64,000 nt of DNA. Source: an uncultured Gammaproteobacteria bacterium (GTDB lineage Bacteria; Patescibacteriota; Microgenomatia; Daviesbacterales; UBA10151). The DNA is taken from assembly GCA_964394855.1 (NCBI GenBank), contig CAYMZD010000001.1, positions 120,107-184,106 of the forward strand, written 5' to 3'. The position numbers and the translations under genes were made by a program. A model generated the notes under the pieces. It ran no database searches. It worked only from the letters and a program-made list of their open reading frames with translations, and had not been told where the DNA came from. The stretch's first letter is position 1, and each line of letters starts with the position of its first letter. Positions 4,881 through 21,003 of the stretch are shown here, one piece after another.

Positions 4881-4952
4881 CTTGTTGACACATCCTGTTA
4901 TACTTAATGTTAAGATTTAAAGAAACGATACGATCACGATCGTCCAAAAATT

Positions 4953-5390
4953 ATGACTGCTACAGCACATGCACTGGTGGGAGGCGCTATTGCGGCCTCC
5001 ATTTCAAATCCTGTTATTGGACTTCCTCTAGCAGCTCTGTCTCATCCTTTAATGGACATGACTCCACACTGGGATTTTGGCTGTGGATGGAGGAAAAAAA
5101 ATAAGATTATTTTATTTGGGCAATCCTGTTTTGATGTAGCACTGGGGCTTTTTTTAACCTATCTTTTTTTTGGTAGAAGTGTTGACCTAACTTATTTGGC
5201 AGCAGCTGTATTTATATCTGAAGCCTGGGACCTGTTGATGGTGCCTTACCTTTTCGGTTTAAAATTCCTACCCTTTTCAGCATTTTACAATGTCCAATCA
5301 GCCATTAATGTCAATATCAAACTTCCCTGGGGAATATTAACTCAAGTTGCCACAGTAGTGGTGACAGTGCTTTTATTAAAAGTTTTTTAA
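4953..5390 (+). CDS. hypothetical small membrane protein
   Basis: Hydrophobic 145-aa ORF in an intergenic slot. An 'atcacgatcgt' motif lies 9 nt upstream of the ATG. Confidence 0.4.
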   Translation: MTATAHALVGGAIAASISNPVIGLPLAALSHPLMDMTPHWDFGCGWRKKNKIILFGQSCFDVALGLFLTYLFFGRSVDLTYLAAAVFISEAWDLLMVPYLFGLKFLPFSAFYNVQSAINVNIKLPWGILTQVATVVVTVLLLKVF

Positions 5391-5953
5391 CCTTTAACCC
5401 TTTCTACATATTGACCAGTTCTGGTATCCACCTTAACTTTTTCTCCCACTTTCATAAAAATTGGTACTTTAATATTGAGGCCATTTTCCAAAGTGGCATC
5501 TTTGTAAACATTAGAAACCGTATTCCCACGTTCTCCCGGTCCTGTTTCAGCAATGGTATAAATTAAGTTGATGGGTAGCTCCACAGATAAGGCCTCCCCT
5601 TCTGCCACAATCAAAGTTACCTCTAAACTATCCTTTAGATACTTGGCTTGATCGCCCATCACTGATATGGACAGCGGGAACTGTTCGAAGCTCACCGGAT
5701 CCATAAAATAAAAACTATCCCCATCACGATATAAATATTGGGCTTTTTTCTTCTCTATATTGGCTTCCTCTACTTTTGAGCCGGTGATAAAAGATTTTTC
5801 CAAAGTGGTACCGGAACGCAAATTTTTGACTTTTACTTTGACATTACCAGAACCCCGACCCATTTTGACATGGTCATAGGATAAAATCTGAAAGATATTG
5901 CTACCCTCTTTAAAAAAAGTACCGTTTCGAAGATCAGTAACATTTAATGCCAT
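5387..5953 (-). CDS. efp: elongation factor P
   Basis: N-terminus 'NDLRNGTFFKEGSNIFQILSYDHVKMGRGSGNVKVKVKNLRSG' is the classic EF-P KOW domain with the modified Lys loop. Confidence 0.9.
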   Translation of the reverse strand: MALNVTDLRNGTFFKEGSNIFQILSYDHVKMGRGSGNVKVKVKNLRSGTTLEKSFITGSKVEEANIEKKKAQYLYRDGDSFYFMDPVSFEQFPLSISVMGDQAKYLKDSLEVTLIVAEGEALSVELPINLIYTIAETGPGERGNTVSNVYKDATLENGLNIKVPIFMKVGEKVKVDTRTGQYVERVKG

Positions 5954-6020
5954 ATATTTCTACTTAGTATAATCCCACTGTAAACCAAATTCAATGATCT
6001 AACTAAATTAAATCCTCATT

Positions 6021-6055
6021 AAGACATTTATATCACGATCGTAATAGATTTGTCT
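6021..6055. repeat. 35-bp direct repeat copy 1 (aagacatttatatcacgatcgtaatagatttgtct), near-palindromic core tatcACGATCGTaata
   Basis: Identical to 6567..6601. Ends exactly at the stop codon of the 6056..6565 ORF. Confidence 0.9.
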
Positions 6056-6565
6056 CTAGCGACCGACATCATCAGACTCAATAACCATTACCCAATCCTC
6101 TATCCCAACCTGCTTGATAAAATCCCTTAAAGGTTTTGTGCAGTTAACTTTAGCTGCCCAAACACTTTTCTGCCAATGCGTAAAACCCCATTGTTTTAGT
6201 TTTGATCTCAACAGATCCCGAGCTGTTCTTCTTTTTTCCGGAATATCAAAGATCACCAACCTCCATCTTCCATCCCATCTCTGGGGAAATTCTTTGATTC
6301 TTGCCCAAATAGCTCGATCTTTACCTTTATCCGTCAATCTTAATATCAACTCTTCATCAGCAATTAATTCCACAAACCCACCCTCGCGTAACCGTTGTAG
6401 AGCTTTGGATAACGATGCTTTCTTGACAGGATAATCCCAGCCGAATCCAAATGGACCTGGATGATTTAAAAAATCATTGGCTCTAACAGTTCCGTCAATG
6501 GTTTTTTCCAGAGCCAGCAGGATGAAATTGGTAACTTTTCTATATTTGGTTAAAGGTTGCGGCAT
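6056..6565 (-). CDS. winged-helix DNA-binding domain fused to a Cas2/VapD-like domain (stand-alone Cas2-fold protein, possibly PaaX-like regulator)
   Basis: C-terminal 'RLVIFDIPEKRRTARDLLRSKLKQWGFTHWQKSVW' matches the Cas2 beta1-helix1 pattern (hhhhhYDIs..krr.kl.k.L..yG.rvQ.SVf). N-terminal 100 aa look like a wHTH. Confidence 0.55.
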   Translation of the reverse strand: MPQPLTKYRKVTNFILLALEKTIDGTVRANDFLNHPGPFGFGWDYPVKKASLSKALQRLREGGFVELIADEELILRLTDKGKDRAIWARIKEFPQRWDGRWRLVIFDIPEKRRTARDLLRSKLKQWGFTHWQKSVWAAKVNCTKPLRDFIKQVGIEDWVMVIESDDVGR

Positions 6566-6566
6566 A

Positions 6567-6601
6567 AGACATTTATATCACGATCGTAATAGATTTGTCT
6601 A
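6567..6601. repeat. 35-bp direct repeat copy 2
   Basis: Perfect copy of 6021..6055. Abuts the start codon of the 6056..6565 ORF on the minus strand. Confidence 0.9.
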
Positions 6602-6677: not shown

Positions 6678-6761
6678 GCCGAGGTGGCGGAATGGTAGAC
6701 GCGAAGGTCTCAAAAACCTTTGATCCAAAAGATCGTGTGGGTTCGACTCCCACCCTCGGCA
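6678..6761 (+). tRNA. tRNA-Leu (anticodon CAA), type II with 16-nt variable arm
   Basis: Manual cloverleaf: acceptor GCCGAGG/CCTCGGC, D-stem GCG/CGC, anticodon stem AAGGT/ACCTT with loop CTCAAAA, variable hairpin tgatc-caaaa-gatcg, T-arm GTGGG-TTCGACT-CCCAC, discriminator A. CCA is not encoded. Confidence 0.85.
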
Positions 6762-6765
6762 CATT

Positions 6766-13637: not shown

Positions 13638-14528
13638 ATGAGCAGTTATATTCAACAACAATTAGCAGAAATTGATCAGAAAATAGCTCAAAATACAGAG
13701 CTGCTAAATGATCCCGAGCTTTTAGATTTAGCCAGGACTGAAATTGAGGAATTAAAAAAACAAAAGGAAGAACTACAAATCTTGAATAATAACTCTACAA
13801 TAGAGATGGACAATAGCTGCATATTGGAAATCCGCTCTGCCGCAGGAGGTGATGAAGCGGGAATTTTTGCCGGTGATTTGCTGCGGATGTATACAAGATT
13901 TGCTCAAAATAAAGGTTGGTTAATAGAAGAGTTAGATCGTTCGGAAGGAAAACTTGGTCAAGTTAAAGAAATTGTCCTCAAAATTAAGGGAAAGGGTTGC
14001 TATAACTATCTTAAATATGAATCGGGAGTTCACCGAGTACAAAGAGTACCCAAAACAGAATCCGGCGGAAGAATTCATACATCAACAGCCACTGTGGCAA
14101 TTTTACCGGAAATTTCCGAAAAAGAAATTTACATTAACCCTAGTGATATTGAATTTGAGGCTTTTCGTTCTGGTGGAGCCGGAGGACAACATGTCAATAA
14201 AGTTTCCACGGCCGTGAGGCTCAATCATATACCAACAGGTATTGTAGTTACTGCCCAAACGCAAAGATCTCAACTACAAAACAGGGATTTTGCCATGGAA
14301 CTTTTAAGATCCAGACTCTGGGATTTAGAGCAACAAAAAACTCACGGTAGCCTAAGCCAGCAAAGAGCCATGCAAGTAGGCAGTGGACAGAGAAGCGAAA
14401 AAGTGAGGACCTACAATTTTCCACAAAACAGAGTGACAGATCACCGAATCGGAAAATCCTGGCATAATTTGGAAGGAATCCTAAATGGCGAGCTTGAAAA
14501 AATTATCAGCGCACTCAAAAGCGCCTAA
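13638..14528 (+). CDS. prfA: peptide chain release factor 1 (N-terminally shortened)
   Basis: 'EIRSAAGGDEAGIFAGDLLRMY', GGQ motif 'SGGAGGQHVNKVSTAVRL', and a PxT-type region. Directly downstream of rpmE. Confidence 0.85.
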   Translation: MSSYIQQQLAEIDQKIAQNTELLNDPELLDLARTEIEELKKQKEELQILNNNSTIEMDNSCILEIRSAAGGDEAGIFAGDLLRMYTRFAQNKGWLIEELDRSEGKLGQVKEIVLKIKGKGCYNYLKYESGVHRVQRVPKTESGGRIHTSTATVAILPEISEKEIYINPSDIEFEAFRSGGAGGQHVNKVSTAVRLNHIPTGIVVTAQTQRSQLQNRDFAMELLRSRLWDLEQQKTHGSLSQQRAMQVGSGQRSEKVRTYNFPQNRVTDHRIGKSWHNLEGILNGELEKIISALKSA

Positions 14529-20289: not shown

Positions 20290-21003
20290 TTAGGGAATAT
20301 TAACCACAGTTTGACAACTAGAAAGGCCTTCATATAGAAGAACTGTATCCGTGCCTAAACCACCGTCACAATAATCCTCTCCTGCCCCTGGACCACCAAA
20401 CTCTGGTCCTCCAAATAATGTATCGCTACCATTCTCGCCATAAAGATAATCTCTATCAATAGTTGCAGGATCAAAATCAGCAGCACCACCCGTCAAAATA
20501 TCATCTCCATTTCCCCCGAAAAGTGTATCAAGACCTTCATTCCCATCTAAATTATCATTATTATTCCCACCATAGAGTGTATCATTACCACCTCGACCAT
20601 ACAAGCTATCATTACCAATCTCTCCGTACAAGATATCATTACCATCTCCTCCGAGTAAAGTATCATCATCGTTTCCACCATACATGATATCACTGCCCGG
20701 CTCACCCATCATACTGACGAGCCCGTCTTTTCCATCCCCACCATATAGAGTATCATTACCTACCCCCCCACAAATTAAATCATCACCTTTGCCTCCCCAA
20801 ATAATATCATTTCCACCCAAACCCGCAATTATATCATTACCATCTGTGCCTACTATAACATCATCTCCCTCAGTTCCCACTATGGTGGCTACCTGACCTA
20901 CACAAGTAACTGCTGAAGCCCTAACCCGATCAGATGAACCTGCGACCACCAATACCACCCCTACCACTATTATAATTGCCAAAAATACTATAATTCTTCC
21001 CAT
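20290..21003 (-). CDS. secreted/anchored protein with hemolysin-type (RTX) calcium-binding nonapeptide repeats
   Basis: N-terminal hydrophobic anchor, then about 12 tandem GGxGxDxLx repeats ('GGNDIIWGGKGDDLICGGVGNDTLYGGDGKD...'). Confidence 0.7.
   Translation of the reverse strand: MGRIIVFLAIIIVVGVVLVVAGSSDRVRASAVTCVGQVATIVGTEGDDVIVGTDGNDIIAGLGGNDIIWGGKGDDLICGGVGNDTLYGGDGKDGLVSMMGEPGSDIMYGGNDDDTLLGGDGNDILYGEIGNDSLYGRGGNDTLYGGNNNDNLDGNEGLDTLFGGNGDDILTGGAADFDPATIDRDYLYGENGSDTLFGGPEFGGPGAGEDYCDGGLGTDTVLLYEGLSSCQTVVNIP

Follow-up and report, generated by a model that had tools for sequence, protein, structure and literature searches.

Paired palindromes bracket a small PaaX-like winged-helix gene and may serve as its operators

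Why should a small bacterial gene lie exactly between two identical copies of a palindrome? The question is raised by a 64,000-nucleotide (nt) stretch of contig CAYMZD010000001.1 from an uncultured Daviesbacteria bacterium, hereafter the window, in which the direct repeat TAAGACATTTATATCACGATCGTAATAGATTTGTCT, 36 nt long, occurs in two perfect copies (6020-6055 and 6565-6600) on either side of a minus-strand gene. The encoded protein, of 169 amino acids (aa), is a ‘mini-PaaX’, a winged helix joined to the Cas2-like central domain of PaaX and lacking the PaaX C-terminal domain. Shuffling the window yielded no repeat match of any kind in 100 trials. On the minus strand, the last base of the upstream copy is the A of the ATG start codon (6565) and the downstream copy opens one base past the TAG stop codon (6058-6056), bearing out the original prediction that the open reading frame (ORF) sits flush between two identical repeats. 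That prediction had described a perfect 35-bp repeat around a 16-bp imperfect palindrome. The repeat is indeed perfect, with one copy of the 35-mer at 6021-6055, but it is 36 nt long and the second copy of the 35-mer lies at 6566-6600 rather than 6567-6601; the palindrome is likewise real but longer, each copy forming an imperfect palindrome, AGACAAAT...ATTTGTCT, that spans about 34 bp around a CGATCG core (6586-6581 in the upstream copy and 6041-6036 in the downstream copy). The argument below concerns three features:

6056..6565, minus strand: mini-PaaX gene, 169 aa (from the ORF list)
6565..6601, minus strand: upstream repeat copy, putative promoter and operator (from sequence, repeat and family counts)
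6020..6055, minus strand: downstream repeat copy, putative auxiliary operator (from sequence, repeat and family counts)

The answer that we favour, with a probability of roughly 60%, is that the gene encodes an autorepressor and that the repeat is the cognate site of the encoded protein, present once as a promoter-operator and once as an auxiliary operator that acts by looping or as a roadblock. In this model, the 36-nt repeat would be the palindromic binding site of a dimeric winged helix-turn-helix (wHTH) regulator of the PaaX lineage, encoded between the two copies. The upstream copy (6565-6600) would double as a sigma70-type promoter whose transcripts begin at the A of the ATG or beside it, and the protein, once bound, would occupy everything from -35 to +1 and so stop its own production. 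The downstream copy (6020-6055) would be a second operator cooperating with the first, either by forming a DNA loop of about 545 bp that holds the gene or by presenting a protein roadblock at its 3′ end. We infer the identity of the binder, the transcription start, the repression and the looping or roadblock role from sequence.

One reason for treating the bracket as functional is its presence in relatives, and the original prediction had named relatives carrying the gene without flanking repeats as the finding that would count against it. We found the opposite, a bracket that is family-wide. The first three homologous loci each carried a palindrome of about 35 nt just ahead of the start codon and a diverged copy at the stop codon. 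We then relied on 80 distinct homologous genes with both flanks at hand, in which related genes were treated as independent in the statistics. In an unanchored comparison of start regions with stop regions (96 nt each), 65 of the 80 genes exceeded the 99th percentile of control segments from the same locus. A CG[AG][TC]CG core lies no more than 70 nt upstream in 76/80 and near the stop codon in 71/80, against a background of 0.64 per kb, and 64/80 genes have a CGRYCG-anchored pair of copies that are identical at 18 or more of 28 positions. Across the family, the palindrome takes the form CA-N8-A-CGRYCG-T-N8-TG, about 34 bp, with its centre 18-19 nt ahead of the start codon in 41 of 68 genes and 14-16 nt past the stop codon in 37 of 68. 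Several genes with a centre-to-start distance of 11-12 nt appear to be start-codon miscalls, such as L002, which has an in-frame ATG at +18. Perfect or near-perfect pairs are found for the window gene (WIN, 36/36) and for L028 (35/35), L067 (33/33) and L021 (30/30), and the bracket is also present in the distant members L083, L084, L205/L206 and L207. In long relatives that bear the PaaX_C domain, the second copy falls within the ORF (910-954 in L210, 899-937 in L211); the in-ORF copy of L211 is in frame and encodes the peptide ..EYLIVAHDRGKMLNS.., and this locus has a third copy past its stop codon (1140-1178).

A few further observations were made on these palindromes and loci. The invariant centre CGRYCG covers both CGATCG and CGGCCG, which are the PvuI and EagI sites, respectively, with CGRYCG itself the degenerate BsiEI-type site. 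At L205 (1311-1390) and L206 (202-277), three half-site direct repeats (AAAAGGGTATGCGA...) lie upstream, besides the palindrome, at a spacing of 21 nt, which corresponds to two helical turns. Many of the loci, including L008, L011, L013 and L015, carry typical Daviesbacteria/Microgenomates genes, yet their third-party annotation (TPA) titles read ‘uncultured Gammaproteobacteria bacterium isolate binchicken_...’, and the Gammaproteobacteria label on these loci looks wrong.

The palindromes behave as expected of cognate protein sites in their symmetry, their distribution and their evolution. At the variable positions, the two arms of a site are complementary at 4.5-4.8 of 8 positions compared with 2.7-3.0 for mismatched arms (permutation p<0.0005), so that the site looks like a dimer-type site. 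Across about 480 kb of loci together with the window, every one of the 71 strict palindromes (CA-N8-ACGRYCGT-N8-TG) flanks a family gene. A search of ±2.5 kb in 64 loci revealed no third cognate site, and the 64-kb window contains none apart from a partial 11-mer at 4933. The two copies belonging to one gene keep a steady identity of 21.8-23/28. Among nearest relatives, by comparison, upstream-to-upstream identity declines from 27.2 to 13.9/28 as protein identity falls, and downstream-to-downstream identity likewise declines from 27 to 14. Among the loci linked to tRNA-Leu (described below), the upstream copy of the window matches other upstream copies at 13-24/28 versus 28/28 for its own downstream copy. 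The excess identity between copies is limited to positions -17 to +18 and is symmetric around the centre. By these comparisons, the two copies co-evolve. In close orthologues, identity is 27.2 of 28 between upstream copies, 27.0 between downstream copies and 23.0 between upstream and downstream copies; because these upstream/downstream differences are stably inherited, homogenisation appears to be infrequent at best.

We also scanned metagenomes with the pattern CAAA-N6-ACGATCGT-N6-TTTG. Near-perfect palindromes made up 58 of the 131 matches, and most of these had the look of ordinary bidirectional terminators, with an A-tract, a GC stem and a T-tract, and came from organisms that are unrelated. 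The scan was rejected as a count of orphan sites because the pattern picks terminators and is uninformative on a regulon. Matches adjoining family genes numbered 24, and the scan added L123, L141, L142, L152, L159 and L194 as examples with both flanks occupied.

What would the upstream copy do? Read on the minus strand, the copy in the window contains a -35 element TAGACA (6601-6596), an 18-nt spacer that holds the CGATCG core, an extended -10 TG (6580-6579) and a -10 element TATAAA (6577-6572), followed after 6 nt by the ATG. The same layout recurs in the upstream copies of the family, with a TTGACA-like element at -18 to -13 relative to the palindrome centre, an 18-nt spacer, TG at +3/+4 and TAnnnW at +6 to +11. 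These promoter positions distinguish the two copies: the G of the -35 is present in 35/64 upstream versus 11/64 downstream copies (p=2e-5), the first T of the -10 in 44/64 versus 15/64 (p=4e-7), and the G of the extended -10 in 39/64 versus 21/64. The symmetric positions (C-14, A-13, A-4, CGRYCG, T+3, T+12 and G+13) are equally frequent in both. In downstream copies, the stop codon sits where the TTG of the -35 would be. At a centre-to-start distance of 18-19 nt, the start codon lies 7-8 nt past the -10; given a -10 that ends at +11, the start codon at +18/+19 is where transcription would be expected to begin, which predicts a leaderless mRNA. The rest of the window offers a context for this arrangement. 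A Shine-Dalgarno-like motif precedes only 15 of the 50 long ORFs, and 21 of the 50 have a TAnnnT box ending 5-8 nt before the start codon, with a peak at 6-7 nt and about 1-2 ORFs at each other offset. Leaderless starts thus seem to be common in this genome, and a leaderless mRNA is plausible for the regulator gene.

The downstream copy poses a harder question. In the window it is an exact copy, with both the -10 and the extended -10 intact and a weaker -35, GAGACA instead of TAGACA. Across the family, the gene that follows is co-oriented in 50 of 74 loci and convergent in the other 24, and the conservation of the downstream copy is 22.8/28 in the former group compared with 21.9/28 in the latter. 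Its promoter score is 2.0 versus 2.3 of 6, respectively, under the 3.9 of upstream copies. As RNA, the downstream copy of the window folds with a z score of -2.0 (-9.7 kcal/mol), and homologous downstream copies give +0.1 and +1.4. No T-run follows the downstream copies, whose right arm is A-rich, and G/T mismatches outnumber A/C mismatches both in downstream copies (46 versus 27) and in upstream copies (66 versus 38). A role as an RNA hairpin or terminator was rejected on account of the weak folding, the absence of a T-run and the failure of the G/T mismatch test to separate the copies. Judged by these features, the downstream copy is more than a promoter for the gene that follows, and it is no terminator, although in the window it may additionally drive transcription towards efp. 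Most telling are L210 and L211, in which a site is kept within the coding sequence, several hundred bp past the promoter, as would be expected of an auxiliary operator. The centre-to-centre spacings of the two copies peak at 528, 538, 548 and 558 (Rayleigh p~0.03, not corrected for relatedness), which hints weakly at helical phasing between the two sites.

One small peculiarity adjoins the downstream copy. Positions 6019-6008 (minus strand) read ATG AGG ATT TAA, one base later than the ATG at the upstream copy, forming a three-codon mini-ORF where a leaderless start would fall; this may be a leftover of a duplication that included the start codon, or may have arisen by chance.

The protein between the copies is a plausible binder, combining as it does a wHTH with a dimerisation domain of the PaaX type. 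Its C-terminal half matches PF20803 PaaX_M (residues 95-167, E 3.1e-22, 78.9 bits versus a cutoff of 24), whereas Cas2 PF09827 stays under its cutoff (22.7 versus 23.8 bits). Among NCBIfam models, TIGR01573 cas2 scores 26.5, over a cutoff of 24.5, and the equivalog model TIGR02277 PaaX_trns_reg reaches 33.4 bits versus a cutoff of 264.55. The VapD family was absent from the Pfam matches at E<=1, as was PF07848, the PaaX-type winged helix, with MarR_2 matching only weakly (E 0.03). PF08223 PaaX_C did not match either, and the chain ends at residue 169, right behind the Cas2-like domain; nor did Pfam reveal a transposase domain in the protein. AlphaFold predicts a wHTH fold, with a recognition helix at about residues 49-61 and a wing at 65-77, and a Cas2-like ferredoxin-fold domain at about 95-167, in which the invariant D107 ends strand 1 (predicted local distance difference test score of 76 overall and 85-93 across the C-terminal domain). 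The top whole-chain PDB matches in Foldseek were E. coli PaaX 8a39 (E 1e-5), Rv0674 3kfw and 3l09; PadR-like winged helices and Cas2 chains each match one half only. D107 aligns with the Asp of Cas2 3exc, and the protein has sequence motifs in common with Cas2 (LVIFDIPE...Q.SVW). The original prediction of a Cas2/VapD fold joined to a winged helix was therefore right about the fold, and the closest family is PaaX (PF20803, Foldseek 8a39) rather than Cas2 or VapD.

An identical protein is on record at NCBI from a Candidatus Daviesbacteria genome, under the name ‘CRISPR-associated endonuclease Cas2’, and several wHTH plus PaaX_M members (including homologues P0001, P0039 and P0113) bear the same NCBI name. 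The name arises because TIGR01573 scores just over its cutoff. Since these proteins lack a CRISPR context, it is probably a systematic misannotation. The array scan of the 64 kb came back empty, as the original prediction had said it would, and no CRISPR-like array was found there (cas1 was not searched across the whole window); no Cas families occur among the called neighbours of the inspected loci, and PADLOC returned weak Cas2 matches only. The protein is not a CRISPR Cas2. In the inspected homologous loci, no small partner ORF is kept beside the gene. The family is large, with 752 clusters of close homologues and 2826 cluster representatives at E<=1e-10, mostly 165-200 aa in length; species-representative genomes hold 302 loci, with several paralogues per genome. 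The recognition helix, KK.SL..ALKRLRE, hardly changes from one paralogue to the next, and an attempt to detect covariation between protein and DNA specificity was given up because of this, no clean residue-base correlation being separable from phylogeny.

How old is the bracket, and does its place on the chromosome explain it? The neighbourhood in the window includes the following features:

6678-6762, plus strand: tRNA-Leu(CAA), divergent from the regulator gene and 77 nt from the repeat
5387..5953, minus strand: efp (elongation factor P), co-oriented downstream neighbour (Pfam EFP_N/EFP/Elong-fact-P_C)
4953..5390, plus strand: 145-aa membrane-like ORF (from the ORF list)
4933-4943, strand not assigned: third copy of the inner 11-mer ATCACGATCGT, 9 nt ahead of the ATG at 4953

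Taken together, the gene has as its neighbours lgt, the membrane ORF, efp, tRNA-Leu, dnaB and a metallo-β-lactamase (MBL)-fold protein. A tRNA had been predicted 77 bp away, and was located there. Divergent tRNAs lie within 400 nt upstream in 21 of the 80 homologous loci, mostly 77-113 nt away; 15 of these 21 are tRNA-Leu(CAA), and dnaB follows past the tRNA in at least 12 loci. Within this tRNA-Leu/dnaB group, the window protein is 41-64% identical to its orthologues. Because both the bracket and its tRNA-Leu(CAA)/dnaB position are kept in such diverged homologues, a recent insertion at a tRNA hotspot is ruled out, and the cassette insertion that the original prediction had put forward is not supported, with the same context in at least 12 other genomes and a bracket in 64/80 homologues (empty sites were not searched). 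Judged by this distribution, the bracket is ancient and inherited, not a fresh duplication scar, and tRNA-Leu(CAA) is a conserved neighbour, a matter of context and not an insertion target. Neither do the loci suggest mobility. No integrase-type neighbours occur in the inspected homologous loci (the window was not searched whole for integrase), and with no relatives of the protein in viral contigs and no PHROG match, a mobile or phage origin was rejected.

The genes downstream follow the paralogue groups, each of which keeps its own co-oriented neighbour: an M1 aminopeptidase after the tRNA-Leu/dnaB-linked group and, after others, a gene resembling DprA/Smf (nine loci), a Mur ligase (three), a ZIP transporter (three) or EamA (two), where the M1 peptidase and efp were identified by Pfam and the others were read from their sequences. 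Only the window and L009 have efp directly behind the homologous gene. In the window, the downstream copy precedes the efp start by 66 nt (67 nt had been given), and efp has a promoter-like site of its own, TTGAAT-17-TATACT at 5994..5966 on the minus strand, according to the promoter scan. The third 11-mer 9 nt ahead of ORF 4953 is real, as predicted, and ATCACGATCGT has five matches at up to one mismatch against 0.29 expected. The match between the repeat and the site at 4933 is confined to the inner 11 nt; its outer arms differ and it fails the full generic palindrome pattern. It is possibly a weak or half operator. Hence, of the small autoregulated regulon once proposed, autoregulation finds support in outline (promoter elements, a dimer-type palindrome and sites at the flanks only), and the regulon part is weak, given efp's own promoter-like site, efp adjacency in one other genome only and the mere 11 nt shared at 4933.

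The 145-aa ORF had no Pfam family match, and the idea that it is syntenic with a 144-aa neighbour in L003 was rejected, there being no similarity between the proteins. Directly before this ORF, the third 11-mer is part of a short stutter, ACGAT-ACGATC-ACGATCGT, at 4924-4943. Elsewhere in the window, the inner 8-mer of the second core type, ACGGCCGT, occurs on its own at 14208-14215 inside the ORF at 13638-14528, with no palindromic arms, and is probably due to chance; a 27-nt tandem repeat of 4.2 copies with 74% matches occupies 20580-20692.

Several points weigh against an autorepressor with paired operators. The upstream site of the window goes unlisted in a strict promoter scan, as the conserved T at the end of the -10 is missing from TATAAA. 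A downstream copy cannot be recognised in 16/80 close homologues and in 2/4 distant two-domain representatives (L208 and L209). A regulator with sites only at its own flanks, over the loci and window searched, has no obvious output. Lastly, the recognition helix is near-invariant and the operator arms differ, and the matching of pairs may reflect gene conversion or common descent rather than paralogue-specific recognition. It is thus worth asking what else could maintain two such copies. The downstream copy could simply be the promoter or operator of the next gene, here efp, making a local regulon in which the protein controls both its own gene and the one downstream, with neither looping nor a roadblock. 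The identity of the window copies, which extends to the extended -10, the start of efp 66 nt further on, the co-orientation of 50/74 downstream neighbours and the characteristic downstream gene of each paralogue group would all fit, but most downstream copies are without the G of the -35 and the first T of the -10, their promoter score does not depend on the orientation of the neighbour and stays well under that of upstream copies, 24/74 neighbours are convergent, efp has its own promoter-like site here and apparently also in L009, and the second copy of the long relatives lies within the ORF; we regard this explanation as unlikely. We give rather less credence to the palindromes being bound by some other common factor, or being structural DNA elements, with the encoded protein doing something else. 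One factor could recognise all of them, as CA, ACGRYCGT and TG are common to all paralogues and the recognition helix hardly varies; against this, the confinement of the strict palindrome to family-gene flanks in about 480 kb is classically the mark of a transcription factor that regulates itself, a wHTH and a dimerisation domain are both present in the encoded protein, and the sites co-evolve gene by gene.

Other explanations look beyond repression altogether. A DNA transaction might keep the copies alike, either because the gene is, or once was, a self-propagating or excisable cassette whose Cas2-like domain nicks, cuts or bridges the palindromes, or because recombination between the direct repeats switches the gene off. 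These two variants, which we judge very improbable even jointly, would account for a gene exactly bracketed by direct palindrome copies, for the several paralogues per genome, for the invariant Cas2-type Asp (D107), for the perfect or near-perfect pairs of some genomes and for the concerted evolution of pairs. They sit poorly with the age of the paralogues (40-65% identity), each of which has kept its own chromosomal surroundings, with the failure to see identical copies within one genome, with the lack of viral-contig relatives and of a PHROG match, and with copy differences that are inherited stably in close orthologues, which makes homogenisation rare at best. A related and slightly more credible, but still quite improbable, idea is that of a self-contained unit whose Cas2-like domain, which bears the invariant Asp, would act upon or bridge the adjoining palindromes of about 36 bp and so keep the copies matched; it could do so by nicking, cutting, capture of the nascent protein in cis, or obligatory looping that insulates the gene. 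If true, a Cas2 homologue would here form the centre of a repeat-gene-repeat module that lies outside CRISPR. There is also very little to expect of the downstream copy as an RNA element (a terminator, a 3′ stabiliser or an RNA target of the Cas2-like domain) that merely resembles a promoter. Although the copy is palindromic and located in the 3′ untranslated region, folds at -9.7 kcal/mol (z -2.0) in the window and has G/T mismatches slightly above A/C mismatches (46 versus 27), homologous downstream copies fold no better than shuffles, the T-run is missing and the right arm A-rich, the same G/T excess is seen in upstream copies that are presumably not transcribed, the invariant CGRYCG centre would form the loop, and copies exist within ORFs. 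The least probable account is that a cassette was recently inserted at a hotspot near the tRNA and that the repeat arose by duplication of a target site or promoter. It could draw on the 36/36 identity, the flush boundaries and a tRNA 77 nt away, but the gene, its tRNA-Leu(CAA)/dnaB neighbourhood and the bracket are common to at least 12 genomes with diverged sequences, integrase-type neighbours were not seen in the inspected loci, and other paralogues are bracketed at unrelated chromosomal positions.

The autorepressor with a promoter-operator and an auxiliary operator remains the explanation that we prefer, and such putative autoregulated winged-helix repressors with bracketing operators are widespread in bacteria of the Candidate Phyla Radiation (CPR). 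The CPR makes up a large share of bacterial diversity, and gene regulation within it is almost unknown. With at least 2,800 clusters at 50% identity and several paralogues per genome of about 0.8 Mb, this may be one of the main families of CPR regulators. The bracket gives each member a predicted promoter, a predicted transcription start and two predicted binding sites, all of which are testable without cultivation, and a recurring database name can be corrected, as proteins of this family are not CRISPR Cas2.

The papers retrieved on PaaX with Cas2, PaaX-like proteins, CPR regulators and Cas2-wHTH proteins contained no description of the bracket architecture, but its parts have counterparts in known systems. 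PaaX proper consists of a wHTH, a dimerisation motif and a C-terminal domain; it recognises the inverted repeat TGATTC-N27-GAATCA and keeps its own promoter, Px, repressed through steric hindrance of RNA polymerase (PMC9493321). PaaX, the phenylacetyl-CoA-responsive paa repressor of E. coli and Pseudomonas (8a39, 3l09), is the best structural match over both domains, and the proteins studied here are like it in having a predicted N-terminal wHTH followed by a PF20803 domain and, by inference, in autorepression. They are unlike it in their length (169 versus about 316 aa), in lacking the ligand-binding PaaX_C domain and nearby paa genes, in a putative operator that is a palindrome of about 34 bp with a CGRYCG centre, and in a putative second operator at the stop codon, which is not described for PaaX. 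In the E. coli paaX region, matches to the published PaaX consensus were not above chance. Cas2 and VapD have in common with the mini-PaaX the ferredoxin-like fold and the Asp that ends strand 1, but the fusion to a wHTH, the absence of an array in the window and the several paralogues per genome set it apart from Cas2.

Bracketing of a single gene by palindromes that its product is thought to recognise is known from RAYT transposases with their repetitive extragenic palindromic (REP) elements and from integron cassettes with attC. In contrast to these, the palindromes here are not dispersed (0/71 lie away from family genes in about 480 kb), occupy fixed syntenic positions and are not accompanied by an HUH or tyrosine recombinase. 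The controller (C) proteins of restriction–modification (R-M) systems are small dimeric helix-turn-helix autoregulators with palindromic boxes over a leaderless promoter; they differ in that C-boxes lie upstream only, in their fold and in their linkage to R-M genes, of which none was seen here, although R-M genes were not looked for. In lambda CI (OR, OL) and 186 CI (flanking sites), the repressor mRNA is leaderless, the operator overlaps the promoter, and far operators allow cooperative looping over long distances and a tighter autoregulation. The mini-PaaX bracket would resemble lambda CI in placing an operator over the regulator's own promoter and a further one beyond the gene, but the folds are unrelated, and the lambda loop of about 2.3 kb spans other genes, its tripartite operators controlling lytic promoters; in the bracket, a site consists of one palindrome, and a loop would hold nothing but the regulator gene. 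LacI (O2 in lacZ), GalR (OI in galE) and DeoR use auxiliary operators hundreds of bp downstream that raise repression by looping or as roadblocks. The bracket is like these in having a putative second operator far downstream, sometimes within coding sequence (L210 and L211), whereas LacI, GalR and DeoR regulate catabolic operons, and not their own genes, from operator positions that are untied to start or stop codons and not family-wide. If the second operator does loop or act as a roadblock, the mini-PaaX bracket would be a family-wide version, hard-wired to the start and stop codons, of a design known from a few model repressors.

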